This document shows, one piece after another, positions 3,741 to 63,328 of a stretch of DNA of 64,000 nucleotides. This stretch comes from Beijerinckiaceae bacterium (GTDB taxonomy: Bacteria > Pseudomonadota > Alphaproteobacteria > Rhizobiales > Beijerinckiaceae). Positions within the stretch are counted from its first letter, which is position 1; each line of letters begins with the position of its first letter. The DNA lies in NCBI GenBank assembly GCA_035949255.1, contig DASZIL010000151.1, positions 9,218 through 73,217 of the forward strand, given 5' to 3'. Both the position numbers and the translations under genes were made by a program. The notes under the pieces were generated by a model that was not told where the DNA came from, did not search any database, and was given only the letters and a program-made list of their open reading frames with translations.

Positions 3741-4642
3741 GCCGCGACCCTCCCGGCTCGCGGCTCAATGAAAGCGGCGAGCGCGCGCCGCACCAGGATA
3801 CGCGCGGCGTCCCGCCGATAATGCGCGCTGGCGCGCACATCATCGAGCGGCGCCAAGACCGAAAACAGCCCAGGCGTGACACGCTCGAGAAGCGAGAGGT
3901 CAAGCCTCTCTCCGCGCAGCTCCGCTTCGAGCGCGGCGAGGCGCGTGGGCACGGCCGATGCGGCCCCGACCGTGATGCGGATATCGGCAATGCTTCCGTC
4001 CGCGGCCTCATCGAGGAGCATGGCGACCGATACGATCGAGATCACGAGATGGGAGCGCGCGCCGAGCTTCAAGAAAAGCGAGCGCGAAGTCGCGTGATGG
4101 GCCGGAACGCGGATCGCGACGACGAGCTCGTCGCCGGCAAGATCGGTGTGTCGGTTTCCGCGAATGAAGGTCGCGAGCGGCAGGCGACGCTCGCCGCGCA
4201 CAGAGGCGATCTCGACCTCCGCATCGAGCGCCAGCAAGGGGGGCACACCATCCGCCGCCGGAGAGGCGTTGACGATATTGCCGCCGAGCGTCCCGCGATT
4301 TTGGATCTGCAAGCCTCCGATCTGAAGCGCGGCTCGTTTGAGCGCATCGAAGGCGGCGGGCAGCCGCGTCGCAACGATATCGGTCCAGCTCGTGGCGGCG
4401 CCGATCGAAAGCGCCCGCCCGTCCCGCCGCATGCCCTTGAGTTCCGGGATCTGCGTGATGTCGAGGAAATCGCGTGGGAAACTCTCGAGCCAAGCCTGTT
4501 TGCCGGCCCGCGTCGGGTAGATGTCGGTGCCGCCCGCGAGGACCGTGAGCGGATGAGCCGAGCGGCCCTTGCCGGAACGGGCAGCCTGCGCAAGCGTCGT
4601 GAGCGCCGACTTCAACGAGGCTGGACGCAGATAGATCGGCAT
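3737..4642 (-). CDS. FAD-binding (medium) subunit of xanthine dehydrogenase family enzyme
   Basis: LAGGTD, IQNRGTLGGNIVNASPAADG and DDVRASAHYR motifs; 4-nt overlap with the Mo subunit gene. Confidence 0.9.
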   Translation of the reverse strand: MPIYLRPASLKSALTTLAQAARSGKGRSAHPLTVLAGGTDIYPTRAGKQAWLESFPRDFLDITQIPELKGMRRDGRALSIGAATSWTDIVATRLPAAFDALKRAALQIGGLQIQNRGTLGGNIVNASPAADGVPPLLALDAEVEIASVRGERRLPLATFIRGNRHTDLAGDELVVAIRVPAHHATSRSLFLKLGARSHLVISIVSVAMLLDEAADGSIADIRITVGAASAVPTRLAALEAELRGERLDLSLLERVTPGLFSVLAPLDDVRASAHYRRDAARILVRRALAAFIEPRAGRVAA

Positions 4643-4751
4643 CGCCTCATGCTCCCGTCCTGGCCGTTTCTTCCGCCATCGAAACCAGCCCTATCCGAAG
4701 GCATCTCGGGAAAGTTGCTCTCGAGCCTTTCGCGTCTTGTGCCTCCCGGCC

Positions 4752-5828
<1,077 letters not shown>

Positions 5829-5850
5829 TCAATCTCCATCCGGGTCGAAA

Positions 5851-5868
5851 TCATTCGTATACGAATGA
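5851..5868. promoter_or_regulatory. Perfect 18-bp palindrome, candidate operator
   Basis: TCATTCGTATACGAATGA is its own reverse complement and lies 26-43 nt upstream of the FNR start codon. Confidence 0.6.
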
Positions 5869-6083
5869 ATAGCAAATCCTCGAACTGCCTGCAATGACCC
5901 GTAGATAAGGCTTGTGCGCGATGGAGGGAAGCTCGGACATGGGCAGCAAGGCGCGCATCCGAGGCATGAGAGCTACGGTACGCATAATCGTCGCCCAAAT
6001 CGGAGCGGGTCATGCCGTCGAGGAAATTCTGGCCGACGACTCTTAGCTTGAGCGAAGACGTCATGCTGGCGCTACGCCATGCC

Positions 6084-6111
6084 GCGTGGCGTGGCGTGGC
6101 GTGGCGTGGCG
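6084..6111. repeat. (GCGTG)5 pentanucleotide tandem repeat
   Basis: Five perfect GCGTG units plus GCG in the marR-FNR intergenic region. Confidence 0.9.
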
Positions 6112-6237
6112 AGCCGAGGCGGACGCGTTGTGTATTGTCATTGCGAACTGAAGGATAAGATGGGCGGTTCTTGAACGAATCCGCATGCCAACAGCTTTTT
6201 CAGCCTGGGAAGGCGCCACCCCGCCCGAGCATCAGGG

Positions 6238-6666
6238 CTACACGATCCTGCCCAACAGCGAGATGAGGCGGCGCTGCTCGCTCGGTGATAGCGGGGCGAG
6301 GGTCGCCGTGGTCGCTGCGCGCGCCTTGTCGATGAGGCGCGCGACAAGCGCTAGCCCCTCCCCGCTCAGGCGAAGGCGGACGCGCCGCTTATCGATAGGG
6401 TCCTGGGCGCGCTCGATGAGGCCGCGCTCGATGAGGCGCGTCACCACGCCCTTCGTCGTCGCCGGGTCCATTCCGGTGAGCCTGCCGAGATGGTTTTGCG
6501 AGAGCTCTTTGGATTCACCGAGCTTGACGAGGGCGGCGAACTGGGTCGGGGTCGGCCCGTCCTCGCCCATCTCCGCAATGAAGATCGCGACGTGGCGCTG
6601 ATGCGCGCGGCGCAGCAAATGGCCGATCTGCGCCTCGAGCCGATAGGTTTCGGAACGAGGCGGCAT
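6238..6666 (-). CDS. MarR family regulator, NicR/BpsR-like
   Basis: LEAQIGHLLRRAHQRHVAIF N-terminal helix, SQNHLGRLTGMDPATTKGVVTRL HTH and DPIDKRR wing. Confidence 0.85.
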   Translation of the reverse strand: MPPRSETYRLEAQIGHLLRRAHQRHVAIFIAEMGEDGPTPTQFAALVKLGESKELSQNHLGRLTGMDPATTKGVVTRLIERGLIERAQDPIDKRRVRLRLSGEGLALVARLIDKARAATTATLAPLSPSEQRRLISLLGRIV

Positions 6667-9846: not shown

Positions 9847-11031
9847 TCATTTCACGTAAGGCATGCCGACGTAATTCTCGGCGAGGCTTTGCGCCGCCGC
9901 GCGCGAGCTCACGACATAGTCGAGCTGCGAGCGCTGGAGCTTCTGGCCGAAGCCGTCCTCATCGGGAAATTTGTGCAGCATCGAGGTCATGAACCAGGAA
10001 AAATGCTCGGCGCGCCACACCCGTTGCAGGCAGGTCGCCGAATAGCCGTCGAGGAGATCGGTCCGGTTCTCACGGTAAAAAGCGCTGAGCGCCTCTGACA
10101 GGACACGCACATCGGCGACGGCGAGGTTCATGCCCTTGGCCCCCGTCGGCGGCACGATATGGGCGGCATCGCCCGCGAGGAACAGCCGGCCGTGACGCAT
10201 CGGCTCGGTAACGAAGCTGCGCATGCCCGTGACGCCCTTCTCCAGCACCGTGCCTTCATGGACCGTGTCGCCCGCGGCGGTGCGCAGCCGCCGGTGCAGC
10301 TCTTCCCAAATGCGGGCATCCGGCCAAAGCTCGAGATTCTCATCGGGCCGGCATTGCAGATAAAGCCGCGCGACCTCATGCGAGCGCATGCTCGAGAGAG
10401 CAAAGCCCCGAGGGTGGTTGACGTAGATCACCTCTTCGGATGCCGGCTCCGCCTTCGCAAGGATGCCGAGCCAGGCGAAGGGATAGACGCGATCGTAAAC
10501 CGTAATCGAGCCTTGCGGAATGGACGGCCGGCAGATGCCGTGAAATCCATCGCAGCCCGCGATGAAGTCGCAGGCGATTTCGCCTTGCTCTCCCGCCCGT
10601 GTGAAGGTGATGCGCGCCCGCTCGTCCTCGAAATCGTGAACGGCGGCATTCTCGGCCTCGAACAGGATCGCGCCCTTGTCCTCGAGACGCTGCGCGATCA
10701 GATCCTTCACCACCTCCTGCTGGCCGTAGACGGTGATCACCTTGCCGCCCGTCAGTTCCTTGAGATCAAGGCGGTGGCGATGCTCGCCGATCTGGATCTG
10801 GATGCCCTCATGCACGAGGCCTTCTCGTCGAAGCCGGGTATCGAGGCCGGCTTCGCGCAAGATGTCGACGCTGCCCTGCTCGAGCACGCCCGCGCGCACG
10901 CGATTCTCGACGTAGGCGCGGCTTCGTGCCTCGACCACGATCGAGTCGATGCCGTGAAGGTGCAAGAGATGCGACAGCAGCAATCCCGCCGGCCCCGCTC
11001 CGACGATGCCGACTTGTGTGCGTTCGCGCAT
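9847..11031 (-). CDS. pobA: 4-hydroxybenzoate 3-monooxygenase
   Basis: RVRAGVLEQG, YGQQEV, DFIAGCDGFHG, GDAAHIVPPTGAKGMNLA and AENYVG motifs. Confidence 0.92.
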   Translation of the reverse strand: MRERTQVGIVGAGPAGLLLSHLLHLHGIDSIVVEARSRAYVENRVRAGVLEQGSVDILREAGLDTRLRREGLVHEGIQIQIGEHRHRLDLKELTGGKVITVYGQQEVVKDLIAQRLEDKGAILFEAENAAVHDFEDERARITFTRAGEQGEIACDFIAGCDGFHGICRPSIPQGSITVYDRVYPFAWLGILAKAEPASEEVIYVNHPRGFALSSMRSHEVARLYLQCRPDENLELWPDARIWEELHRRLRTAAGDTVHEGTVLEKGVTGMRSFVTEPMRHGRLFLAGDAAHIVPPTGAKGMNLAVADVRVLSEALSAFYRENRTDLLDGYSATCLQRVWRAEHFSWFMTSMLHKFPDEDGFGQKLQRSQLDYVVSSRAAAQSLAENYVGMPYVK

Positions 11032-11266
11032 TCGTTTCCCTCCTGCCGCTTCTCGCGTCAGGTAGAATGAATTTTCAGCCTTGCATCAAGCGGGTGGTTG
11101 GATGGTAGGAAGGCGGTCATCGAAGCGTCAAGGCGCTGCGCGCATCGCGAGACGAGCCGGGGATGACAGTCAAGGAACGACCGGTATTGAATCCAATTCG
11201 CCCGCTTGACGGCGCGCACCGACGCGCCATAGTCCAATTCCTCGCGGAGAAAACGCGGTTGCCGAC

Positions 11267-11878
11267 ATGAAAGTTAAGGTTTTGTTGATTGCGCTGGCCG
11301 TAGCCGCGGTGAGCGGCTGCGTGCCGGTCCTCCAATCGGGCCTGCCCGACCCGAAGCTCACCGAGCGCGACAAGCTGATGATGGCGCGTGCCGAACCCGA
11401 CGAATGGAGCATCCCCGATGTCCGCAGCAAGGTCCGGTATTCGACACATGAGATGCCGGGCACGATCGTCGTCGATACCGGCAGCCGACATCTATATTAC
11501 GTTCTGCCCCGCGGCGAAGCGATCGAATATCGGATTGCGACCGGCGCCGAGGCTTATGGCTGGACCGGCCGGGCCGTGGTTGGTCAGATGAAGGAATGGC
11601 CGACCTGGATGCCGACCGCATCGATTATGGAGCGTTGGCCACAGTTCAAAGTCTATCTTAAGCACGGCCCGCTGGAGGGCCGGTGGGACAATCCGCTCGG
11701 CGCCCGCGCGCTCTATCTCTTTCAGGGCGATCATGACACGCTCTATCGCATCCACGGCACCAACGAGCCCGCCGAGATCGGCCAAGCCGTGTCATCCGGT
11801 TGCATCCGCATGCGCAACTTCGATGCGATCGACCTCTATCAGCGGGTGCATATCGGCACTCCGGTCGTGGTGATCTAG
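11267..11878 (+). CDS. L,D-transpeptidase (YkuD family) lipoprotein
   Basis: Lipobox VSGC; NPLGARALYL, YRIHGTNEP and VSSGCIRM catalytic motif. Confidence 0.92.
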   Translation: MKVKVLLIALAVAAVSGCVPVLQSGLPDPKLTERDKLMMARAEPDEWSIPDVRSKVRYSTHEMPGTIVVDTGSRHLYYVLPRGEAIEYRIATGAEAYGWTGRAVVGQMKEWPTWMPTASIMERWPQFKVYLKHGPLEGRWDNPLGARALYLFQGDHDTLYRIHGTNEPAEIGQAVSSGCIRMRNFDAIDLYQRVHIGTPVVVI

Positions 11879-12085
11879 ACTAATCGCGTAGATCTCGCGA
11901 CCTTACACCTGACCCGGATCTCGATGGAAGAGTGGTCGGCGGAACCGCGTATTTCGGCTCCAAGATTTCCTTGGTCGGACGACCGCTTCGCCGCGCAGCG
12001 TGAGACTCGCCGAAACCCGTTCTCCTTCATAAGATTACGATCGGCGTGTAGTTTGTCATTGGGTGCCGCCTGGAGGGCTTATCGA

Positions 12086-12565
12086 ATGCTTGGCCGCCTC
12101 ATCCTTTCGCTCGTAGGTGTTGCTCTTTCAATTTTGATTGGCTCAGCCGCTCAGGCCGCTCTTTTGATCGAAATAGACAAGTCAACGCAGCAGATGACCG
12201 TCACGCTCAATGACGAGCGGCTTTACACCTGGCCTGTGTCGACCGGAACCGAAGAGTATGACACACCAACCGGCAGCTTCGCGCCATTCCGTATGGAAAT
12301 CGACCATCGCAGCGACGAATGGGACAATGCGCCAATGCCCTATTCGATCTTCTTCACGGATACCGGGGTCGCCGTGCATGGCACCTACGAGCGACGGTCC
12401 CTAGGGCGTGCCGTATCACATGGCTGCGTGCGGTTGTCGGTCAAAAATGCTGCCACGCTGTGGAAGCTCGTCAAACAGGAGAAAATGGCGAATACCTCGA
12501 TCATGGTGAGCGGAGACGTTTCAGATGAGGGTCCGTCCAGGGAAACGCGTTCTCCTCTTTACTGA
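12086..12565 (+). CDS. L,D-transpeptidase (YkuD family), second copy
   Basis: Signal peptide MLGRLILS...AQAA; WPVSTG, MPYSIFF, AVHGT and SHGCVRL. Start set to the ATG at 12086. Confidence 0.88.
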   Translation: MLGRLILSLVGVALSILIGSAAQAALLIEIDKSTQQMTVTLNDERLYTWPVSTGTEEYDTPTGSFAPFRMEIDHRSDEWDNAPMPYSIFFTDTGVAVHGTYERRSLGRAVSHGCVRLSVKNAATLWKLVKQEKMANTSIMVSGDVSDEGPSRETRSPLY

Positions 12566-12855: not shown

Positions 12856-13932
12856 ATGAAGAGCTATCGCATCGCCGCGATCGGTGGTGACGGCATTGGT
12901 CCCGAGGTCATCGCGGCGGGCCTCGAAGCCCTCGAGGTTTGCGCCAAGCGCGATGGGGGGTTTCGTTTCGACGTCAAGAACTTCGACTGGGGCTCCGACC
13001 GTTACAAGCGCCATGGCTTGCTGATGCCGGCAGGTGGGGTCGATGAGCTTCGCGTCTTCGATGCCATCTATTTCGGCGCGGTCGGCGCGCCGGACGTGCC
13101 GGATCACGTCACGCTCTGGGGCTTGCGGCTCGCCATCTGTCAGGGCCTCGACCAATACGCCAATGTGCGCCCGACACGTATCCTTCCCGGCATCACCGGG
13201 CCGCTACGAAATGTTTCGGCAAAAGACCTTGATTGGGTCATCGTGCGCGAGAATTCCGAGGGGGAATATGCGGGCCAGGGTGGCCGTTCGCATAAGGGCT
13301 TGCCCGAGGAAGTCGCGACGGAGGTCGCGATCTTCACCCGCGCGGGCGTCGCACGCATCATGCGCTTTGCCTTCGCGCTCGCGAGCTCACGCCCGCGAAA
13401 GCATCTCACCGTGGTAACGAAATCGAATGCCCAACGCCATGGGATGGTGCTTTGGGACGAGATCGCGGCCGAGGTCGCGGCGGATTTCCCCGATGTCGCC
13501 ATGGACAAGATGCTCGTCGACGCGATGACGATGCGCATGGTGCTGAAGCCGGAAACGCTCGACACCATCGTCGCCACCAATCTGCACGCCGATATCCTCT
13601 CAGATCTCGCGGCGGCACTCGCGGGATCGCTTGGCATCGCGCCGACCGCAAACCTCAACCCGGAGCGCAAATTCCCGTCGATGTTCGAGCCGATCCATGG
13701 CTCGGCCTTCGATATCGTCGGCAAGGGCATCGCCAACCCTATCGGCACCTTCTGGACCGGCGTGATGATGCTCGACCATCTCGGCGAGCCGCGCGCGGCC
13801 GAAAGGCTGATGCGCGCCATCGAGCGCGTGACGGCAGACCCCGCCACGCACACGCCCGACCTCGGCGGCAAGGCGACGACGCGTAAGGTCACCGATGCCG
13901 TCATCGCCGCGCTCATGGGCGACAATCTCTAG
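12856..13932 (+). CDS. ttuC: Tartrate dehydrogenase/D-malate dehydrogenase (decarboxylating)
   Basis: GDGIGPEV, PDHVTLWGL, VRENSEGEY, TKSNAQRHGM, NLHADILSDL and MFEPIHGSAFDI. Confidence 0.9.
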   Translation: MKSYRIAAIGGDGIGPEVIAAGLEALEVCAKRDGGFRFDVKNFDWGSDRYKRHGLLMPAGGVDELRVFDAIYFGAVGAPDVPDHVTLWGLRLAICQGLDQYANVRPTRILPGITGPLRNVSAKDLDWVIVRENSEGEYAGQGGRSHKGLPEEVATEVAIFTRAGVARIMRFAFALASSRPRKHLTVVTKSNAQRHGMVLWDEIAAEVAADFPDVAMDKMLVDAMTMRMVLKPETLDTIVATNLHADILSDLAAALAGSLGIAPTANLNPERKFPSMFEPIHGSAFDIVGKGIANPIGTFWTGVMMLDHLGEPRAAERLMRAIERVTADPATHTPDLGGKATTRKVTDAVIAALMGDNL

Positions 13933-50445: not shown

Positions 50446-50522
<77 letters not shown>

Positions 50523-50583
50523 GTGTTTTCAGGCGCTTAGGCATGGATCTTCTTTCACGGTTAGAATCGCCAAGCCGGCGCCG

Positions 50584-51130
50584 TTAAACTTTTGTGCCCC
50601 GTATGGCCGTCCGGCCATCGAGCCTGGCGCGGTCCACCATTCGGATAACAGCACTGTTCACGGGCAAATATGTGCGCTCGCGGGTTGGTGGCGATGGAAT
50701 TGGCCATCTTCGAGCCGATTTGCTCTGCGCTCGCGCCGCCGGCAAGTGCTCCGGTCGCGCCGGAGCGACGAGCATCCATAAGCATGCGCGTGTCGCCTGG
50801 AAAGATTCTGGCACGGACAGCCCGAAAATCGTCTCCCAGCGTGTCCTTGGAATACGCGGCGCGCGAGCGGTTACGGAACAGCGGGGATCCGCAAATCGTT
50901 TCGGGGGTGTTCTTAAGATAGTTGTCCATCAGTCGGCGTGTCCTGGCGCTTAATGTCCCAATTGCAGTCTTGCCGGTCTTCGCCCTCGGTATTCTGAAAC
51001 CATCGGAACATATATGCTCCCTGGCCAGTCGGTGGGCGTCCACGGGGCTGAATCCGGTATCCCAAGCGATTGCGATCACGACGGCAAGGCCGTGATAGCC
51101 CAATCGCCGTGCGGCCTTGATGAGCCGCAC
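50584..51130 (-). pseudogene. Tyrosine integrase remnant (N-terminus missing, frameshifted)
   Basis: AWDTGFSPVD, RAKTG and DARRSGA in one frame; the C-terminal RTYLPVN (catalytic Tyr)...GTKV* lies in another frame (track ORF 50584..50814). Confidence 0.75.
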
Positions 51131-51264
51131 GATCTTAGGCCTGTGACGGCTTAGCGAGTGGCAGGGGCTTTCGAACCGGACTTACACTTGCTCCCCGTTG
51201 CTGTATAGCCGAATAACTGTATTTTGATTGTCCCAGTCGTAAAATTTTTACGCGGGGGGTTAGG

Positions 51265-51378
51265 AGTCCCGCCGCAACCCCACCCCACCCAGCGAACATA
51301 GAGGATGGGGCCTGCCTGGTTTGGATTTGCTTAGGGTGGGGCGGGGGTGCGCTATTGGGGTGAATGTTGGAAATGGAC
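51265..51378. repeat. ~113-bp G/C-run direct repeat, copy 1
   Basis: Shares blocks AGTCCCGC, ACCCCACCCAGC-AACAT, TTGCTTAGGG, GGGCGGGGGT, TTGGGG-GAA-GTTGG and ATGGAC with 53184-53295. Confidence 0.75.
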
Positions 51379-51589
51379 GGATAAGAGCTGCCGATGGTCT
51401 GGCAATCTATCAGTGTCTTACCGCAAAGTTAGACGGAGGAGCCCTCCGCAACTGCAACGACATGCGCTCGCGCCTGCCGCACGATTTCAGCCACCCATGC
51501 AACATCACATCCTGACTAGGCTTCCTCCCTAATGCGCAAACGGCCGCTGGCGGATTCAGAAGGAACATTAGCTAGACTTGGTTTGACCT

Positions 51590-52774
51590 TCACAGAAAAA
51601 GCCCGCCTTCGAGTGAGGCGGGGCAGTCAAGGCGCTTGCGCTCGACACCTAATTCTTCCAACCGGCAAATCTCTCGCCGCTTTGTCAACATAGTCCAGAG
51701 GACTCGGATTGGCTTGGGCCGAAGATCCCAGTAGGAGCCCAGCAGGTAATCGGCCGAATCCGGCTGAAAGGGATGATGCCCAGAGAATGGGTAAAGCGCT
51801 ATCTCTCCGACGTAAATTTGGTCATCGCATTCGTACATATCCACCCTAACATGATCGAGCCCGGCGGCCAGGCGCTCTGCAATCCGGATCATTTCGTCGA
51901 AGTGACGCGGAGGATTGACGGGCTTAGGCGGTGGATGAACAGCCTTCCAGGGAAGCTGCGTCCAATCCAACGTATGATACGAAACCATAGGCATTCGATT
52001 CTTGCCAGACATGGTCACGCTTCGAATCACCTTTACGACTCCATGAAAGACGAAGAATTTGCGCTCGATCGGTGGCAAGCCATTTTTTTGCGACAAGAGT
52101 TGCTCCGCCATCAACCGGCGTGGGACATTGACATACCCAATTTCATTAGTTGTTGATCCGTGGCACGCCTCGAGCCAGGCACGCGCAGTTTGCCGGATGG
52201 CTTGCTGATTCTGTGCGGCTCTATCCTCGACAATGATGGTGTGGGCAGTGCTATGTGTGCTCTTGACAATATAGGGAGGAATAAGTGCCTCGAACGGTAT
52301 GTCGTCAGGAGTATTACCTGTCCAAAGCAAGGGCACGAGATATTGCGGCCCAACCCGCTCGCTGACGAAGTCACGCACTGCCAGCTTGTCGCAGAGAACA
52401 ACATAGAGTGGGTTGAGGTCAAAAAGTTTTCGCCATTGGATTTTCTCAGTGTAACGTACCGGAAAGATTAGCGACGGGTAGAACCCGTGTGCCGCGTGGT
52501 AGGCGCCGCAAATTCGTCGGATGGCGCGCACCCAATCCCATATCCTTGGAAAGAGAACCGAGCACGGCTTTGCCACCGCGATCCTCAGGAAGGATCCGAG
52601 AACTACAATAAATGTACGGTGAGATTCCGTCTGTCTGAGGTCGAACCGGCCGACGGCAAGGAGCCGAGAGGAGGCCCGAGCGCCCGTGACAACCGATGAA
52701 GTCGAGCTGTGGCCGGCGAATGGAGAGGGGCGGACCGCGCGATCACGGTTTGAACGTCTCCCGCCACGCAACAT
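51590..52774 (-). CDS. TupA-like ATP-grasp protein (start uncertain)
   Basis: YTEKIQWRKL, CDKLAVRDFV, YIVKSTH, ERKFFVFHG, DHVRVDMY and VGEIALYP; low GC. Confidence 0.75.
   Translation of the reverse strand: MLRGGRRSNRDRAVRPSPFAGHSSTSSVVTGARASSRLLAVGRFDLRQTESHRTFIVVLGSFLRIAVAKPCSVLFPRIWDWVRAIRRICGAYHAAHGFYPSLIFPVRYTEKIQWRKLFDLNPLYVVLCDKLAVRDFVSERVGPQYLVPLLWTGNTPDDIPFEALIPPYIVKSTHSTAHTIIVEDRAAQNQQAIRQTARAWLEACHGSTTNEIGYVNVPRRLMAEQLLSQKNGLPPIERKFFVFHGVVKVIRSVTMSGKNRMPMVSYHTLDWTQLPWKAVHPPPKPVNPPRHFDEMIRIAERLAAGLDHVRVDMYECDDQIYVGEIALYPFSGHHPFQPDSADYLLGSYWDLRPKPIRVLWTMLTKRREICRLEELGVERKRLDCPASLEGGLFL
51596..51623 (-). terminator. Intrinsic terminator-like hairpin overlapping the end of the ATP-grasp ORF
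   Basis: GCCCGCCT/AGGCGGGC 8-bp stem followed by T5 on the minus strand. Confidence 0.5.
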
Positions 52775-53183
52775 CTACGCACCTACACTTGATTGTTTTT
52801 TATTGCCCGCCCCAGGTTCAAACCTCGCCGACGTGCAAGACAAACTATTCGTCGCCCAACGAGAATTGCATTGGCTAGTTACCAAAACGTTGTGAGCTGG
52901 ACTTGCCAATATTGCTGAATTCAATTCAAATCGATATTGACAAGCCGTTTTTATTAAGAAGGTTAATATTCATGCGATCTCGCCTCGGTCTTTCTCCTTG
53001 CGAAACGCCACGGGCTCAGTAGTTCCAGGGTGCTCTATCGCCTGCGGCGCCTCATGGTCGATGATGGGCTTGGCATCAACTGCAATGACACGCGCTCTCG
53101 CCTCCCGCACAATTTCAGCTAGTCCAGGCCCCTAGCTCAGCCTGTAGCTTCGCATCCTGGCTTGGCTTACCCCACCCACGATC

Positions 53184-53295
53184 AGTCCCGCTGCGACCCA
53201 CCCCACCCAGCAAACATGGGTGGGGGTGGGAGTGCGATTTTGGTATTGCTTAGGGGTGGGCGGGGGTTGCTGTTGGGGCGAACGTTGGGATGGAC
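53184..53295. repeat. ~113-bp G/C-run direct repeat, copy 2
   Basis: Same conserved blocks as 51265-51378, in the same orientation. Confidence 0.75.
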
Positions 53296-53602
53296 CGCAC
53301 ACAACCCGCGCGGAGGCCTGTCACGATGTGAGTGAGTTACCGCCAAGGCCACACTGTTTTGATTCCAAGGCAGGTGATGCGAAAACCAGCCTTTCCGCTC
53401 TCGCTTTCGACGTTTTTCTCTTGTTCGCCTTGCCGACGCATGGACAAGCGCTCTTCGGATGACCCAGGAACCATTTACGCCGGCCGGACTACCTAAGAAG
53501 TATAGCCGGCGAGTTTGAGCCTTCTCCAGGGCGCGCCCCGCGCAATATAACCGAAATAACCGCGATGCCGGAGGCTATTGACGCCAAGCTTCGGAGTTCA
53601 AC

Positions 53603-55036
53603 ATGCGCGTGTGGCCGATGCTTAGAGGCTTGATCGGCGCGATCACGGTATTTACCTGGGGCTTGCTCGCGATAGGCCCAAGTCACAAGGTGAAGGATGG
53701 TGCCGTTGGCGACCTTCACCATGATATTCTCAGCGCCTCGCAACCCCTTTCGCGAAAAACTCTCTCGAAACTCGCCGATGCCAGTGACTCACGTATTGGG
53801 GAGGGGCGGGCGTCGCGCGACTCGAGCCAGCTCGGCTCGGCGCCGGGGCAAGCTCTCAGGAACGATCGTGACGCGACGGCCTTACCCGGAACTTCGCAAG
53901 ACTTGAGCGGCGGCCCTCAGACGAGCGGCAAGGCCGAGCTTGAAAATTCCAGGCCGGAGCGCGCCGACACCTTAAACCCGCCCGAGACGGCAAACCGGGA
54001 CGCCTCCCGGAGTCTCGCAGCCTCTTCGAACCCCGCTCCCGGGGCCGAGATGGCTGGCATTCCACCTTTTGCTCCGCGAGTGACCGTAGATTTAGCAAGC
54101 CGCCCGGAAGATGGGCGGGCGGACGAAGGCGTTGCACGCAAGTCCTTGTCGGCCTCCGACGATGCAGCACAATCGCCGGCGCCAGCCTCTCCTAGCCCGG
54201 ATTCCACAGCACGCGACACAGCTTCGTCCGATGCAAAATCCGTGAACGAAGTCCCGACCATTGCGTCCTTGCTCCCGGAAGCGCCAACGGATTCGCCGCG
54301 CGCCCCGCAAGATTTTGGGGAGCACGAGACTGACAGCTCCGGACCCTTGGCTGACGCATCACGACCGGCGAAGTTACCAACCCCTTTGCCGACAATTCCC
54401 GACTATGGGGACAGAGTTTCGTCCGATGCCACGCACGGCAGTGAAGCTTTGCCAATCGCGCCCTTGCTCTCCGAACTGCCGATCCCCCCGCCCGTCGCTG
54501 CGGCGAAGCCGCAACAGCAATTAACGGGCGGATCCCGGCGTCCCGGCGCGGCTGAGGCCGATGTGGAAAAATCACTCCAGCCGGCGTCGTCGATGAGGGC
54601 TCCGTTCTCATCCGAGGATGGTCAATCAGAGCCGAAAGTTCGGACGACCGTTGCCGGACCGCATTCGAAATCGGCTGTGGGTCGAGCGCACGCTGCGGAC
54701 CCCAAACGAAGCCCAGCAATCGGTTTTGCTCCTCATTCGACGAGAGAGAAGGTGACGGGGACGAGGTTGGATGGGCGGGACCACGCGCCAAAGATTGTTG
54801 CCAGCAAGCGCATGACAGCGAGGACTGGCGAAAGCGGGCGCTCTGGTCGTGCGCCGACCTTCGTGGACGAGAAGAACCGCCCTTTGTCCTCAATACGTAC
54901 GGCGGTGAGTGAAAGCGAGGCGCAGGGGGTGCAATGGCGGCTCTCGCTCAGGCGCCGATGCCCATCGATCATCGCGAGCTCCGACGAATATGACGACGAT
55001 CTCGTTCGGCTATGTCGGCTTTCGGCGGGGCTTTGA
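53603..55036 (+). CDS. Hypothetical protein: N-terminal hydrophobic anchor/signal, long Pro/Ser/Ala-rich disordered region, C-terminal C-x17-C motif
   Basis: [16 protein letters not shown] hydrophobic segment; ends [30 protein letters not shown]. Confidence 0.6.
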
Positions 55037-55106
55037 TGAGTGTCAGCGCGTCAAGGCTGATTTGTCGCCCTTTTTGCAGGAGCTTTGCCGTTCAGGAGAA
55101 TCTCAC

Positions 55107-56045
55107 ATGTCTTGCGTGAAGCCGATGAGAGGAGCGCGGCGCGGCGCGGCAAGCCTTGCGTTCATTGCCGTACTGAGCCTCGGGAGCTACGCGCTTACCA
55201 TAAGCGGCGGCGCCGGTGCGGGTCCAGGAGGAGCGGGAGCGAGCGGCGGCGCGGGTGTGGGAGCTGGAGGCGGCGGCGTCGGCGCGGGGGCTGGTGGTGG
55301 CGTCGGCGGGGTTGGCGCGGGCGCAGGCGTGGGTGTGGGGGCCGGGGGCGGCGGTGTCGGGGCAAGCGCGGGCGCAGGCGTGGGCGGGGCCGGCGCCGGT
55401 GGAGGTGTAGGAGTCGGGGCCGGGGGCGGCGGGGTCGGTGCAAGCGCGGGCGCCGGAGTTGGAGCCGGTGGCGTCGGTGCTGGTGCAGGTGTAGGCGCAG
55501 GAGTGGGCGGCGGCGGGATCGGCGCAAGCGGGGGCGCCGGGGTTGGAGCCGGTGGCGTCGGTGCTGGTGCAGGCGTAGGTGCAGGAGTGGGCGGCGGCGG
55601 GGTTGGCGCAAGCGCGGGCGCCGGGGTTGGAGCCGGCGGCGTCGGTGCTAGTGCGGGCGCAGGTGTTGGTGCAGGGGTCGGCGGCGGGGTTGGCGCCGGC
55701 GCAGGTGTTGGTGCAGGAGTGGGCGGCGGCGGGGTTGGCGCCGGCGCAGGCGTTGGTGCCGGGGTTGGCGGCGTCGGTGCCCACACGGGTCTTGCCGGGG
55801 TGATCGGGGCGATTATTAGTGCCGGCAAAGGCGGAGCCGGTCCAGAGACCGGGCCGGGAGGAACTGCCGGCATCGGCGGCACCAACGGCATGTCGGCCGC
55901 TGTGATTGCGGCGGGTTTGGGCGGCGCTCAAGGGACACAATGGCGGTTGTTGCTCAAGCAACGCTGCCCATCGATCATGGCGCATCCCGCCGAATACGAT
56001 GTGGATCTCTTTCGTCTGTGCCAGCTTGTGGCGCGGTTGCGTTGA
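55107..56045 (+). CDS. Putative exported Gly/Ala/Val-rich repeat protein with C-terminal C-x17-C motif
   Basis: AGGAGA RBS, signal-like [34 protein letters not shown] repeats; ends [30 protein letters not shown]. Confidence 0.72.
55440..55691 (+). repeat. 84-bp (28-codon) tandem repeat within the Gly-rich gene
   Basis: Units beginning GCAAGCG at 55440, 55524 and 55608; the third unit diverges. Confidence 0.8.
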
Positions 56046-56405
56046 CGCTTCAATGCTTAACGCTAGGAGGTTACCTATCGACACCGCGGCAAGAGCTAGC
56101 GCGATGATTATTGCAGCATTATTTGGCGCCAATAGACCATAACCGAAGAAAAGAGCGGCGGCCCAAAATGCGACGATCACGACGAGCTGCCAGGGCACCA
56201 AAGGACCTGCGATCTGCAGAGACAGCAACAGTCGCGACTGTTGCATAGCCGTAGCAAATTGCTGGGCCTTTGCTAGGGCATGCTTCTGCGCTTCCGATTT
56301 AGGCTGGAGTGACGCAAGAACGGCATTGGTGTCGTCCTTTTGCGCCAGCGGACGAGCAACCGTTGTGAACGCCCCCGGATCAACCTGTCGGTGATCGAAA
56401 ATCAC
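56046..56405 (-). pseudogene. Fragment of a DUF4239/bestrophin-like membrane protein
   Basis: LQPKSEAQ...SRLLL...WQLVVIVAFWAAALFFGYGLLAPNN resembles the C-terminal half of DUF4239 proteins. The N-terminal half is absent and the ORF reads on into the antisense of the Gly-rich gene. Confidence 0.45.
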
Positions 56406-56693
56406 TCCTGTTCCCCTTCCCGACCCGTCAGATCAGGGCACCGCTGAAGATAGCGAGGCGCCATTGCGGCCTTGAGCGGCGCCGGATACGGTTACCCCAA
56501 GGGGCACGGGTCATGCCGCACGCCCTGTGGCGAGCTGCGGCCGGCGAAAGATCGGGCCGTGGTGCGTGCGTCGGTGAGCCCAGTTTTGCAACGTCGCGGA
56601 GCCAGGCTCTACCGAGCGCTTGGCGGTCAGGTACGAGGGATCGCGACGCACGAGCGTCACAGGCGCCCCTGCGCGCGGCGCCCTGTAGGGGCC

Positions 56694-58643
56694 ATGCTGG
56701 CGGTGATCGTGGGCGCTGGCGCGTTATGCCCGATCTCCGCAAAGGCCTTGGATCTGTCCTTTCTCGACCCTTTCGGCTTCTTCAGTTCCAAGGAGGAGCC
56801 GCCAAAGCCGAATGCGGCAAGCCTGCCCTACACCATCTCCTTCAAGTTAATCGGCGGCGAGCCTGGTAATGCGGGCGACGTGGAGCAGGCGCTCAAGGAC
56901 GCCTCAAACCTTTACAAGCTGCGCAAGGACGCTCCTCCGGATGGTGATGTGTTGGCACGCCGTGCGGCGTCCGACCTTGCCCCGCTCCTCGATGCACTCT
57001 GGGCCGAGGGCTATTACAACGCCGTCTTGCGCATCCGCATCGGCGATGCCGTGATTAATGTGGCGCAAGAGCCCACTCCCGGTCTCATCAAGGCCGCGGA
57101 AGCGTGGCGCAACCGTGCCCTCGTGCCGGTTGAGGTGGAGGCCGAACTGGGCCCGCTTTTTCGTTTGCGAGATGTGACGCTGTCGCAGGCCGCGCAAACT
57201 GTGCCGGTGCCGCAGCGGATCATCGGGCTCAAACCCGGCGCTCCGGCGCGCGCCGCCGATATCCGTGCGGCGCAGGCGCGCGTCATCGATTTCTACAGGA
57301 CGCAATCCCATCCGCTGGCGAGCTCGCTCAAGCTCGCCGCCACTGTCGATCACGCGAAGGAGGTCATGGACGTCGTCATCGGCGCCGATCCCGGGCCACG
57401 CGCCGGCTTCGGCGAGGTGACGGTAACGGGCACGACCAATGTGCCCGAGGAGGTCGTGCGATCATATATTTATATCGAGCCCGGCGAACCCTATTCGCCG
57501 GAGAAGATCGCGGTAGTCCGCCGCTCGCTCGCCGGCATTCCAGCGATAGGGGGGGTGCGCATCCGCGAGGCAACCACTCTCGACGCGCAGGGCAATCTGC
57601 CGATCATCGTCGATGTCAGTGAGAGGCCGAACCAACTGCTCGGGGTCAATCTTCGCTTTTCCAGCATCGACGGCCCGGACATTCATCCCTATTTTGAGAT
57701 CCGTAACCTCTTCGGCGGGGCTGAGCGGCTGCGCATCGACGCGGACGGTTACCTCGCGCCGCGCATCGACGGGGGCTCCAGCGGCATCGAGCCGCGCGAT
57801 TTTGCTGGCCGCATCGCCATGAGTTTCCTCAAGCCCGCACTCAATGGCAGCCGCTTCGATTTCCTCTTCGACGCGCTCGCCGAACGTCAGCGCGTCGGCA
57901 CGATCCGCTTCGGCGGCTACACGGTGCGCGACGCCTCGGCCACCGCGTCCTTGCGCTACCGCTTTTCGGAATTCCTGTCGGTGCAGGCAGGCGTCACCGG
58001 AGGCTGGGCTCAGTCGAGCGACGTGCTCGGTGAGGCAACCGCGACCTTGATCGGCCTGCCTGTGAGCGTGAAATACGACACGACCGACAACCTCCTCGAC
58101 CCGACGCGCGGCGTGCGCATCTCGGCCCAGCTTACCCCCTATCCGACCTTCCTCGGCTCGACCGTGGGCTTCGTCGATGTCCGAGGCCAAGCCTCGACTT
58201 ATTACGCCCTTGATGAAGATGCCAATTACGTGCTCGCCGGGCGAATCGCGGCAGGCGCGCTGATCGGCGGAGCCTTGCAGGACATCCCCTCGAATTACCG
58301 CTTCTATGCGGGCGGAGGCGGCTCGGTGCGCGGCTTCCGCTATCGCACGCTGTCTCCCATGCTCAACGGCAAGCTCACCGGCGGGCGCACCCTCCTTGAG
58401 GGCTCGCTCGAAGCGCGGATCAAAATCACGCAGACTATTGAGCTCGTGCCTTTCGTCGATGCGGGCGGCGCCTTCGCCACGAGCCCGCCCAATCTCACGC
58501 AGCGAACCGGAATTGGAGCAGGCCTCGGTTTGCGTTATCTCACGGCGATCGGGCCGATCCGGCTCGATCTCGCGACGCCGGTCAATGCCCGCAAGGGCGA
58601 CAAGCCGGTCGTGCTTTATCTTAGTATTGGGCAGGCTTTCTGA
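56694..58643 (+). CDS. tamA: Translocation and assembly module outer-membrane subunit (Omp85 family)
   Basis: Signal peptide, POTRA-like repeats (AEGYYNA, GEPYS), RFYAGGGGSVRGF lid-lock, VPFVDAG, GPIRLDLA and terminal GQAF. Start approximate. Confidence 0.9.
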   Translation: MLAVIVGAGALCPISAKALDLSFLDPFGFFSSKEEPPKPNAASLPYTISFKLIGGEPGNAGDVEQALKDASNLYKLRKDAPPDGDVLARRAASDLAPLLDALWAEGYYNAVLRIRIGDAVINVAQEPTPGLIKAAEAWRNRALVPVEVEAELGPLFRLRDVTLSQAAQTVPVPQRIIGLKPGAPARAADIRAAQARVIDFYRTQSHPLASSLKLAATVDHAKEVMDVVIGADPGPRAGFGEVTVTGTTNVPEEVVRSYIYIEPGEPYSPEKIAVVRRSLAGIPAIGGVRIREATTLDAQGNLPIIVDVSERPNQLLGVNLRFSSIDGPDIHPYFEIRNLFGGAERLRIDADGYLAPRIDGGSSGIEPRDFAGRIAMSFLKPALNGSRFDFLFDALAERQRVGTIRFGGYTVRDASATASLRYRFSEFLSVQAGVTGGWAQSSDVLGEATATLIGLPVSVKYDTTDNLLDPTRGVRISAQLTPYPTFLGSTVGFVDVRGQASTYYALDEDANYVLAGRIAAGALIGGALQDIPSNYRFYAGGGGSVRGFRYRTLSPMLNGKLTGGRTLLEGSLEARIKITQTIELVPFVDAGGAFATSPPNLTQRTGIGAGLGLRYLTAIGPIRLDLATPVNARKGDKPVVLYLSIGQAF

Positions 58644-61600
58644 TGAGACCTTCCCGCACCACCGTTCTCCTCGCTTTCCTCGCCTTCCTGGCTTGCCTGG
58701 CGGGCGGAGCGCTCTCGCTTGGGCCACGCGCCGACGAGGGCGATCAGAGCTATCTCGCGAGCCTCATCTCGCAAGCTCTGTCGACGCCCTCGACGCAGGT
58801 GCGGATCGGCCGGCTCGAGGGCGCCTTGTCTTCGGACGCAACGCTCTATGATCTGAGTATCTCCGACAAGGACGGCGTGTGGCTGAGGCTTGACCGCGCT
58901 CGCCTCGTCTGGACGCGAGCGGCGCTCCTCTCCCGCCGACTCGAGATCGACAAGCTCGAGATCGGCAAACTCGAGATCCAGCGCCACCCGACTCCATCCG
59001 ACGAGCCGGTGCCGCAGGCGAACGCTCCTCTCCTGCCGGAGCTACCTGTCAAAGTGCAGGTCAAGGACTTTTCGCTCGTCGAACTCGCCATCGGCGAACC
59101 GCTGCTCGGCGTCGCGGCGCGCTTCACGGCCTCCGGCACCGCAAATCTCGGGAACCCTGCCCAAGGGCTCGAGCTACGCTTCGATGCGCGCCGGCTCGAC
59201 GCGCCAGGCACTCTCTCGACCCGATTGTCCTTCGTGCCGCAGACCGAGGCGCTATCCCTTGACCTCAAGCTCGACGAGCCGCAAGGAGGGTTTCTCTCAA
59301 AACTTGCAAGACTCCCCGAAGAGCCGCCGGTCAAGCTCGAGCTGTCGGGTCACGGCACGCTCGACGCCTTCGGCGCGGCGCTGCGCTTCGATGCGGGTCC
59401 GACGATCGGCGCCGAGGGCAATGCGCGCCTGGCGCGCGAAGGCGGCGTGCGCCATCTCCTCGTCGACGTCGCCTCGCGCATCGCCGGGCTACTGCCTCCG
59501 CCCGTGGCGCCGGCCTTCGCGGGCGAGACGAAGCTGCAAGGGGACGTGACCTTCGCGGACGCGGGAGCGATCAACCTTGCAGGCTTCTCGATTGCCTCTT
59601 CGGTCGCAAGGCTTGATCTTTCGGGCAGCGTGGATGCCGCCCGCAATCTCGACTTGCGCTTTCGCGCCGGCGCGCTGCCAGCACCCACGGGAACCACCAG
59701 GGCAGGTGAAGTCGAGATTGGCAAGCTCGCCCTCGATGGTGCCGTGAAGGGGCCGCTCGACGGCCCCAGCATCTCGGCTTCGCTCGACCTCGAGGACATG
59801 AGGACGCCACAGCTGCGCCTCGCGAAGCTTACTGCCGATTTCACCGCGATCCCGCGCGGCGACGGCGCCGCGCCAAAGCCAATCGCGCTCGCGGCCAAGG
59901 CCGAAGCGAACGGGGTCGCTCTCACGGACCCGGCGCTCGCGGCCGCGGTCGGCGATCGCTTCAGCTTCACGCTGCACGGCACCACAAGCTCGGACGGCAT
60001 CGGCGATTTCGATCTCATCGAGGCCTCGTTGCGTAGTGCGCAGGTAACCTACACGGGCAGGCTCGGCGCGGCTGAAATCCGCGGCAATCTCTTAGCCGAG
60101 GTGCCGGACCTTTCCCGCTTCAGTGAACTAGCCGGCACAAAGCTCGCCGGCTCCGCCACCCTCAAGGCCAACCTCCAAGGCTCGCCCCGGCAAGGCGATG
60201 CGTCGGCGCAGCTCGATATGGAGGCCGACCACCTCTCCCTGGGTCAGGCCATCGCCGATCGCTTGTTCGGCGGCATGGCCAGAGCCTCCGGCGCGATCCG
60301 CGCACTGCCACGCGGCGCTTACGGTTTCAACTCGCTGCGCTTATCGGGCCGCCATGTGGCGCTCACCCTCGACGGGAGCGCGCGTCCATCTAGCGTTGCG
60401 CTCAGCGCCAAGGCTGAGCTGCCGCGGCTCGCTTACGTGGATGAGCGCCTGACGGGGCGCGCCAACGCGATCGCCAATATCACGGGAAGCTTCGCGCATC
60501 CCGATCTCCATGTGGAGGCGGCGCTCGCTGACGCCACCGGGCTCGGCCGGCCGATACCGCGTTTCGGCATCGTCGCGGATATCCGCAATCTTCGCGACGC
60601 GCTCGATGCACGGGCCAAGCTCGACGGGATCGTCGACGGCAAGGAGGCGAGCGGCAAGCTGCACGTGGCCCGCCTGGCCGATGGGGCTTGGCAGCTCGAT
60701 GGGCTTGCGCTCGGCATCGGCTCAGCCTCGCTTACGGGCGACCTTGGCCTCGATGCTCGCCATCTTGCGAGCGGCCATGTCATATTCGCGGCGCGCAATC
60801 TCGACGACTTGACGCCGCTCCTCCTCACGCGACTCTCCGGCAGCGCCGAAGCGGATGTCAGGCTTGATGCGCAAGGCGGGCGCCAGGACATCACGCTCGC
60901 CGCGCGGGCAACCGAGGTCAAGGCCGCCGCCGTCGTGCTCGGCAAGCTCTCCGGGGACGCGCAGGTCGTCGATCTCTATGGAATCCCCATCGTCAATGCG
61001 GCAATCGGCATCGATCAAGCGGCGATCGCGGGCCAGAGCTTCTCGAGGATCCGGCTCGACGCGAAAGGCAGCACGACGGCGACTGATTTCTCGGCTCAGG
61101 CGAGCGCTCTCGGCTTCGAGCTTTCGACCAAAGGGCGCTTCCTGCCGCAACGACCGATGCGGATCGAGGTCGCTTCCTTCGAGGCGAAACGCGGGGCGCG
61201 CGCCATCGCGCTCACTGCGCCCGCGAGCATCACCTTCGAGGATGATAGCGTCGCCATCGCCAACCTGGCCTTGGCAATGCAAGGGGGCCGGATCAGCCTC
61301 GAAGGCACGGCGGGGCAAAAGCTTGATCTGCGGGTCGCGGCCCGCAGTGTGCCCTTGGCTGCCGCCGACATCTTCGTGCCGGGGCTCGGGCTCTCGGGCA
61401 CGCTCGACGCCAATGCCACAATCGCCGGCACGCCGGACGCTCCCACGGGGCCTTTCCACGCCACCGTGGTGCACCTTTCCACGGCCCAGATGACAGGTGC
61501 CGGCCTGTCGCCGGTCGATGCGAAGCTCGATGGCGAGCTCTCCGATAAGCGCGCCAAGATCGACGGCCGCGTCGACATCCATCGCTATGGTATGATCGAG

Positions 61601-62938
61601 TTCCACGGCGGCCTGCCTTTGTCGACCGCTGGCGCAGTCGATCTTGCCGCGACCGGCCACATCGACGCGGCGATCACCGATCCGCTGCTCGGGCCCGCGG
61701 GGCGTCGGCTCACGGGAGTTGGGGTCATCGACCTTCATGTCAGGGGAGCGGTGACCAAGCCGGAGCTCTCCGGGAAGTTGAGCTTATCGCGCGGCAGCTT
61801 CTCGGACTTCCTCCAAGGCGTTCAGCTCAACGATCTTCAGATCACGCTCTCCGGCAACAAGGATCGACTGGCGATTGAAGAAGCGCGCGCCGCGACTCGC
61901 AATGGGGGCACGCTCCGCGCCACGGGCGATGTCAGGATCGATCCGGCAGCAGGCTTTCCGGGCACGATTCGCATCAGCGGGCAACGGGCCGAACTGCTCT
62001 CCAACCCCTTTGTCACCGCCATCGCCGATCTCGATCTTGCGTTGGCCGGCGCGCTCGCGCGCGATCCTCGCATCGGCGGCCGCATCGACCTCGATACCGT
62101 GACCGTGAGCGTAGCTGAACGCCTTCCCAGCACCATCCGTCCCTTGCCCGATACGCGTCATCTCAATCCTCCGAAGGAGGTCGCGGCACGTCTCGCCGCC
62201 GAGCGCAAAGCGCAGCGCAGCGCAGCCGCGAGGCGGGCTGCGCCTTTCAATGCCTCCCTGGACATCGCCCTCGCCTCGGCCGGCGGCATCCTCGTGCGCG
62301 GGCGCGGGCTTGACGCCGAGCTCGGCGGAAGCATCAAGATCACCGGCACACTCGCCGCTCCTAATGTGGTCGGCGCCTTCGATTTGCGTCACGGCGATCT
62401 CAACATCGTCGGCAACCGGCTCGACTTTACTCGCGGGCACGTGACCTTCAGCGGCGACCTCGTGCCCGAGCTCGATTTCCTCGCCGAGGCGCGCGCCGCC
62501 GATGTGACGGCAATGGTCGGCGTCACGGGCCCTGCATCCGCGCCGCAATTCACCTTCTCGTCCCAGCCGCCACTGCCACAGGACGAAACCCTCTCGCGCA
62601 TTCTGTTTGCCAGGGCCACGGGAACCTTGTCGCCCTTCCAGGCACTTCAGCTCGCCCAGGCCGCCGCGCAATTCTCCTCAGGTGCCGGCAATGGTCCATT
62701 GGGCTCGCTTGGAAGGTCGTTCGGGCTTGGGAGCGGCGATGGCGGCTCAGATGGGCTCCTCGGGCGCCTGCCCAATGCGCTCAGCAAGCGTGTGCGGATT
62801 GGGGTCCAGACCGGGGCGACCGCCGGCGAGACAGGCATCTCGGTCGATGTCGACCTCAGCAAGCATATCCGGCTGCGGGGCGAAGCGGATGCCAATGGCG
62901 AAACCTCAATCGGCATCGGCACCGAGTGGGAGCATTAG
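58643..62938 (+). CDS. tamB: Translocation and assembly module TamB (DUF490)
   Basis: N-terminal TM anchor, 1431 aa beta-taco-like Gly-rich body, RGRGLDAELGG, FSSQPPLPQDETLSRILF and terminal GIGTEWEH; overlaps the tamA stop. Confidence 0.9.
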   Translation: MRPSRTTVLLAFLAFLACLAGGALSLGPRADEGDQSYLASLISQALSTPSTQVRIGRLEGALSSDATLYDLSISDKDGVWLRLDRARLVWTRAALLSRRLEIDKLEIGKLEIQRHPTPSDEPVPQANAPLLPELPVKVQVKDFSLVELAIGEPLLGVAARFTASGTANLGNPAQGLELRFDARRLDAPGTLSTRLSFVPQTEALSLDLKLDEPQGGFLSKLARLPEEPPVKLELSGHGTLDAFGAALRFDAGPTIGAEGNARLAREGGVRHLLVDVASRIAGLLPPPVAPAFAGETKLQGDVTFADAGAINLAGFSIASSVARLDLSGSVDAARNLDLRFRAGALPAPTGTTRAGEVEIGKLALDGAVKGPLDGPSISASLDLEDMRTPQLRLAKLTADFTAIPRGDGAAPKPIALAAKAEANGVALTDPALAAAVGDRFSFTLHGTTSSDGIGDFDLIEASLRSAQVTYTGRLGAAEIRGNLLAEVPDLSRFSELAGTKLAGSATLKANLQGSPRQGDASAQLDMEADHLSLGQAIADRLFGGMARASGAIRALPRGAYGFNSLRLSGRHVALTLDGSARPSSVALSAKAELPRLAYVDERLTGRANAIANITGSFAHPDLHVEAALADATGLGRPIPRFGIVADIRNLRDALDARAKLDGIVDGKEASGKLHVARLADGAWQLDGLALGIGSASLTGDLGLDARHLASGHVIFAARNLDDLTPLLLTRLSGSAEADVRLDAQGGRQDITLAARATEVKAAAVVLGKLSGDAQVVDLYGIPIVNAAIGIDQAAIAGQSFSRIRLDAKGSTTATDFSAQASALGFELSTKGRFLPQRPMRIEVASFEAKRGARAIALTAPASITFEDDSVAIANLALAMQGGRISLEGTAGQKLDLRVAARSVPLAAADIFVPGLGLSGTLDANATIAGTPDAPTGPFHATVVHLSTAQMTGAGLSPVDAKLDGELSDKRAKIDGRVDIHRYGMIEFHGGLPLSTAGAVDLAATGHIDAAITDPLLGPAGRRLTGVGVIDLHVRGAVTKPELSGKLSLSRGSFSDFLQGVQLNDLQITLSGNKDRLAIEEARAATRNGGTLRATGDVRIDPAAGFPGTIRISGQRAELLSNPFVTAIADLDLALAGALARDPRIGGRIDLDTVTVSVAERLPSTIRPLPDTRHLNPPKEVAARLAAERKAQRSAAARRAAPFNASLDIALASAGGILVRGRGLDAELGGSIKITGTLAAPNVVGAFDLRHGDLNIVGNRLDFTRGHVTFSGDLVPELDFLAEARAADVTAMVGVTGPASAPQFTFSSQPPLPQDETLSRILFARATGTLSPFQALQLAQAAAQFSSGAGNGPLGSLGRSFGLGSGDGGSDGLLGRLPNALSKRVRIGVQTGATAGETGISVDVDLSKHIRLRGEADANGETSIGIGTEWEH

Positions 62939-63183: not shown

Positions 63184-63231
63184 GGCCTGCCACGCCGGAG
63201 GTCGCGGGTTCGCGCCTCGTCACTCGCGCCA
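63184..63231 (+). repeat. att direct repeat (degenerate tRNA-Asp 3' end)
   Basis: GGCCTGCCACGCCGGAGGTCGCGGGTTCGCGCCTCGTCACTCGCGCCA versus 50475-50522; mismatches at 63190, 63213 and 63217. Confidence 0.88.
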
Positions 63232-63328
63232 GCATTCTCAAGCACTTGTCGTAAGTCCTTGCCCTCGTCTTTTCAACGAACGGGCGCCCCACAACCGCCG
63301 AACCGAGCCGTCGCGCCGACCTGTCTCG

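Follow-up and report, generated by a model that had tools for sequence, protein, structure and literature searches.

The window analyzed here, a stretch of 64,000 nucleotides from contig DASZIL010000151.1 (positions 9,218 to 73,217) of a Beijerinckiaceae bacterium assembly (GCA_035949255.1), contains two tandem open reading frames, ORF1 and ORF2, followed on the same strand by the tamA and tamB genes. The two predicted products open with hydrophobic segments of 25 (ORF1) and 23 (ORF2) residues, continue into low-complexity bodies of different composition, and close with a shared C-terminal tail carrying 2 cysteines. The tails are identical at 23 of 34 positions with both Cys retained, and this match, together with the N-terminal hydrophobic segments, had been described in the initial annotation and was confirmed here by alignment, codon pattern, and tblastn. 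When the pair was compared in all 6 frames, the plus frame was conserved best; the DNA differences numbered 5/8/14 on codon positions 1, 2, and 3, and 9 of the 20 differing codons were synonymous. With one tail as the query against the whole genome, tblastn recovered the sister tail (E = 3.5e-12) and a third paralogue on contig C152 (E = 5e-12), a protein of 260 aa with a signal peptide, a Gly-rich body, and the tail. Because the remaining genome-wide matches all had E > 0.7, the similarity is far beyond chance.

We searched 1.84 billion representative proteins with a profile of the 3 tails and identified 79 clusters at E <= 1e-3. The C-x17-C spacing was invariant in 75 tails drawn from these clusters, with the consensus L-[KR]-R-R-C-P-x-I-L-A-x4-Y-D-D-D-L-V-x-L-C-R over a length of roughly 35 residues and strong conservation of R-2, R-1, P+1, I+3, Y+10, D+11, L+14, V+15, and L+17. 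Every full-length member inspected was opened by a signal peptide or membrane anchor, as judged by eye, and had the tail either at its C-terminus or with fewer than 80 residues behind it. The bodies in between were of 3 types, namely an anchor followed by a Pro/Ala/Ser-rich region, a signal peptide followed by Gly/Ala/Val/Asn-rich repeats, and an anchor followed by long Ala/Glu/Arg coiled coils, and 3 tail subtypes tracked the body type. The initial annotation had suggested that a tail profile might uncover diverse N-terminal fusions, and the search bore this out. In 5 coiled-coil members from metagenomes (P0019, P0026, P0032, P0043, and P0045), the first tail is followed 60-80 residues later by another, degenerate one (FKRxCxFILQHxEYSRELVxLC, spacing C-x16-C).

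ORF1 has orthologues in metagenomes and in 4 more species of its genus. Among them the tail was 85% identical, against 46-53% for the N-terminal anchor region and 19-38% for the body, a gradient that supports the earlier proposal of a conserved tail module, kept under purifying selection while the bodies diverge. Pfam and NCBIfam gave no match (E <= 0.1 to 10) for ORF1, ORF2, the isolated tails, or 13 further members, a sequence-profile search of PDB with the tail gave nothing below E = 0.1, and Foldseek against PDB with the hairpin model described below gave nothing below E = 7, in agreement with the initial annotation, which knew of no named family. A full-text literature search on the tail motif strings and a word-indexed protein search with the ORF2 tail were also without match; one likely reason for the latter is that the public gene call put ORF2 on the opposite strand. 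The members named in the sources were all labeled hypothetical protein. The tail is thus a genuine, undescribed mini-domain, and it is restricted to one order.

Within that order, the Hyphomicrobiales, the tail was identified in 37 of 401 genomes (about 9%) and in 19 of 150 genera, and the profile had no matches among about 397 genomes of the same class outside the order. The usual form in the order is one or two proteins of 200-260 aa with a signal peptide and a Gly-rich body, and more than 30 genomes, spread over many genera, share this order of signal peptide, Gly-rich body, and tail. Among the named carriers are Jiella flava and Methylocapsa sp. S129. In the genus of the window, which consists of uncultured Hyphomicrobiales metagenome-assembled genomes (MAGs), 6 of 9 species had 2-8 tail copies, and one relative, G005, had no tail gene. 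A locus search with the alignment of 3 tails returned 9 loci. The tandem pair, with a Pro/Ala/Ser-rich gene followed about 1 kb downstream by a Gly-rich gene, was also present in G001, G006, G007, and G008, and the type-specific tails were kept within these pairs. Near-identical copies of the pair were located on 2 smaller contigs (C2 and C1, of 550 kb and 336 kb) of the 9.1-Mb genome G001, with one more Gly-rich copy on C1, which suggests recent duplication or mobility on plasmid-like replicons.

AlphaFold2, run on the tail with a 62-sequence alignment, predicted a helical hairpin (helices at residues 5-23 and 30-42) with a mean pLDDT of 86 and core values of 92-97. The 2 invariant cysteines, Cys18 and Cys36, are placed one on each helix at matching heights, as judged from helix positions rather than coordinates. 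Five DsbA-family proteins are encoded in the genome, and a periplasmic disulfide between the 2 cysteines is most likely. We therefore state our preferred reading, in which we have moderate confidence, as follows: ORF1 and ORF2 form a conserved cassette of Sec-exported, largely disordered envelope proteins, with the tail as a disulfide-stapled docking or oligomerization module. Sec would export ORF1 by its N-terminal anchor and ORF2 by its cleavable signal peptide. ORF1 would then be held in the inner membrane by the N-terminal helix, its Pro/Ser/Ala-rich linker reaching into the periplasm, and ORF2 would be released by cleavage with a silk-like (Gly-Ala/Val)n body. The hairpin would be the sole folded and selected part of each protein, its 2 cysteines bonding in the periplasm, and by pairing with another tail or binding a common envelope partner it could position or cross-link the low-complexity bodies.

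Several observations weigh against this reading. The signal peptides were judged by eye. An AlphaFold model of a natural two-tail protein was too low in overall confidence (pLDDT 59) to show tail-tail packing, and neighbor clustering around 30 tail genes revealed no candidate partner, only ordinary within-family synteny with housekeeping genes such as folD, purU, and NAD kinase. In G006 (contig C29, about 9946-12387), both genes of the pair contain frame breaks that leave signal peptide and tail in different frames, which could be an assembly error in repeats (the MAG is 80% complete) or gene decay and pseudogenization.

A stronger version of the docking proposal is that the hairpin is a new, order-specific assembly module, whose disulfide-locked tails, for instance those of membrane-anchored ORF1 and secreted ORF2, pair with each other and build a periplasmic or surface matrix out of (Gly-X)n, Pro/Ala/Ser-rich, and coiled-coil proteins; the system, spread as a mobile two-gene cassette, would be a bacterial counterpart of silk assembly under the control of terminal domains. 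We regard this as rather unlikely. In spidroins and silk fibroins, Gly/Ala repeats make up the core and a small, disulfide-linked helical domain (roughly 100 residues in spidroins) forms the C-terminal cap, and ORF2-type members resemble them in joining Gly-X or Gly/Ala/Val/Ser repeats to a small helical terminal domain with conserved Cys. However, no sequence or fold match links the 2 groups, the tail is far smaller, and the tail proteins are bacterial and putatively periplasmic. ORF1 and the coiled-coil members are also laid out like TonB and TolA tethers, a long helical spacer (Pro-rich or rich in Ala/Glu/Lys) joining an N-terminal anchor to a small globular module at the C-terminus, but that module is a 35-residue two-Cys hairpin rather than TonB_C or TolA_C, and no ExbBD- or TolQR-type partner genes lie near the tail genes. 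The BA14K-type (PF07886) proteins of Rhizobiales resemble the tail proteins in being exported, in having a region of low complexity, and in carrying a short conserved segment with 2 Cys at the C-terminus; this family was rejected, as the tail proteins have no Pfam match and their motif differs. Substrates of type 1 secretion with RTX repeats were likewise rejected, since the repeats lack Asp, a signal peptide is present, and HemolysinCabind gave no match.

The tail could instead serve as a pro-domain or as a signal at the C-terminus for sorting or secretion, perhaps cleaved, with other machinery moving the body to the outer membrane or surface or attaching it there. Its position at the C-terminus of otherwise unrelated exported bodies, which recalls the PEP-CTERM, GlyGly-CTERM, LPXTG, and T9SS CTD tags, and the conservation of charged surface residues (RR, DDD, and R) beyond the needs of a bare structural hairpin speak for such a role. 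Yet the tail lacks the hydrophobic transmembrane stretch and basic end that mark PEP-CTERM and LPXTG signals, and the predicted hairpin is charged and soluble; a search of NCBIfam returned no match, and membership of the PEP-CTERM class was rejected on these grounds. Moreover, no exosortase, rhombosortase, or sortase gene was identified near the tail genes, their neighbors include no conserved transporter, sortase-like, or protease gene, and some members carry 20-80 extra residues after the tail or a second tail, which is unusual for a terminal signal. We consider a sorting signal improbable on this evidence. An outer-membrane protein beta-signal was also considered for the tail and rejected.

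A further alternative, to which we give a small chance, is that the tail anchors the proteins to the membrane or peptidoglycan as an amphipathic element and does not dock to other proteins. Its 2 amphipathic helices with a basic K/R-R-R cluster could bind acidic lipids or the cell wall, but the acidic YDDD cluster is equally conserved, and the tail resembles none of the known wall-binding domains, LysM, SPOR, and OmpA_C included.

Table 1. Features of the tail-gene locus and its surroundings (positions in the window)
Feature	Position	Strand	Description
ORF1	53603..55036	+	477 aa; N-terminal membrane anchor, Pro/Ser/Ala-rich disordered body, C-terminal tail
ORF1 tail domain	54920..55033	+	38 residues
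ORF2	55107..56045	+	312 aa; putative signal peptide, (Gly-Ala/Val)n repeats, C-terminal tail
ORF2 tail domain	55926..56042	+	39 residues; helical hairpin predicted by AlphaFold
tRNA-Asp (GTC)	50446..50522	+	ARAGORN; integration site of the island
Decayed genomic island	50540..56413		5.9 kb; inserted between tRNA-Asp and tamA
Truncated tyrosine-integrase fragment	50561..51130	-	phrog_1, E = 2.7e-5; profile positions 278-416 of 611
TupA-like ATP-grasp gene	51590..52774	-	PF14305, E = 4.4e-26; island cargo
Possible DUF4239/bestrophin-like gene fragment	56040..56405	-	Weak PF14023 match, E = 0.0018, below the curated cut-off
tamA	56694..58643	+	Omp85, E = 1.1e-48, and POTRA; core gene outside the island
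tamB	58643..62938	+	PF04357, E = 5.4e-49; core single-copy gene
Degenerate copy of tRNA-Asp 3' half	63184..63247	+	88% identical to 50475-50538

The pair lies in a small, since decayed island that was inserted at tRNA-Asp and that brought the tandem cassette to this site. Homology to the empty sites of the relatives G004 and G005 in blastn ends at 50539 and restarts at 56414, with only 51 bp in G004 in place of positions 50540-56413. In both relatives tRNA-Asp sits directly upstream of tamA, and the full order in G004 is SDR, tRNA-Asp, tamA, tamB, a degenerate tRNA-Asp half, and tkt, with proteins 94-98% identical to those encoded in the window. The locus thus shows a tRNA-adjacent insertion with empty sites in relatives, as well as a tRNA-adjacent integrase in the form of a truncated fragment only, for which Pfam had no match. 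The GC content, about 0.64 elsewhere, drops to 0.53-0.56 at 51-53 kb, and the TupA-like gene occupies this GC minimum of the island. Within 10 kb of the tail genes at 15 loci of the genus, tblastn identified no tupA and no integrase, and the DUF4239-like fragment was not found beside other tail genes. The third paralogue (2504-6322 region of C152) stands alone, with an AlkZ-like DNA glycosylase gene on one side and DinB/LysR genes on the other; G004 and G008 keep this order, so the copy is chromosomal and predates the pair on the island.

The initial annotation had placed tamAB in the same island and proposed a candidate surface-protein system in which the tail serves as a sorting, anchoring, or polymerization module, possibly handled by this island-borne TamAB. 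The co-oriented tamA and tamB genes do follow immediately downstream in the window, and the copy of the tRNA-Asp 3' half beyond tamB makes them look enclosed by the island. However, the island ends at 56413, upstream of tamA, and the degenerate tRNA half is also downstream of tamB in island-free G004 (L038, about 13780-13840), so this repeat is older than the island and was rejected as its attR; no direct repeat was found at the distal end of the island, about 56.4 kb. In the lineage of this genome and G004, tRNA-Asp thus lies on one side of the core tamAB operon and an old att-like remnant, possibly left by a past integration, excision, or rearrangement, on the other. No tRNA was present within the roughly 20 kb fetched around tamAB in G001 and G006.

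The tamAB copy itself is a vertically inherited housekeeping copy. The tamB gene was detected in 36 genomes, tail-free G005 among them, and was single-copy in each. TamA identity was 98% to G004 at the syntenic site, 87% to G005 and G008, about 53% to the deeper genus members, and no more than 56% to other genera, falling with relatedness as expected of vertical inheritance. Further, the linkage that the initial annotation had proposed did not recur, an outcome that it had itself named as refuting its proposal: at those 15 genus loci tblastn detected neither tamA nor tamB within 10 kb of the tail, the tamB closest to a tail gene in another 27 genomes was at least 63 kb away or on a different contig, and of about 45 tail genes elsewhere, in about 30 genomes, none was within 60 kb of tamAB. 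Substrates of TAM such as autotransporters and inverse autotransporters share with the tail proteins only the adjacency to tamAB in one genome, and a Pfam scan of ORF1 and ORF2 identified no beta-barrel, passenger, or autotransporter domain. Between ORF2 and tamA lie an ORF fragment on the opposite, convergent strand and the conserved upstream region of tamA. TAM is not part of the system, and handling of the tails by TamAB is very improbable; the adjacency is accidental, because the island integrated at the tRNA just upstream of tamAB.

ORF2 was listed with a span of 54909-56045, beginning at a GTG (54909) and overlapping ORF1. The start is most likely ATG 55107, which is preceded 9 nt upstream by AGGAG. 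The Gly-Ala/Val repeats of ORF2 correspond to a repeat family of 17 copies at 55220-55780, where the GC skew is +0.33, and such repeats stay open in several frames. That ORF2 is no gene, with a 437-aa minus-strand ORF (55092-56405) as the real one and the second tail non-coding or a product of chance, is the least probable of the alternatives: a JGI metagenome annotation does call the minus strand (a 422-aa gene, L101 11490-12758) and the 5' end of this ORF weakly matches DUF4239, but its product past residue 120 or so is repeat read-through without family match, the plus frame joins signal peptide, repeats, and a tail scoring 104 bits against the family profile, the plus-strand architecture recurs across the genera as described above, and the tail comparison shows the plus frame best conserved with an excess of third-position changes. 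Judged from the reading frames, the minus-strand ORF is thus unlikely to be real in place of ORF2. Opposite-strand gene calls through GC-rich repeats may account for the scarcity of ORF2-type proteins in protein databases.

Taken as a docking cassette or not, the 2 genes lead to a well-defined domain on neglected low-complexity envelope proteins, not to a new machine, and the TAM lead is removed as an accident of integration at a tRNA gene. The tail is a domain without name or structure, borne by exported low-complexity proteins whose composition is otherwise unrelated. Proteins of this kind tend to be passed over as hypothetical, and gene callers may choose the wrong strand for them. The defined tail provides a handle that makes their envelope role testable in cultivated Hyphomicrobiales.

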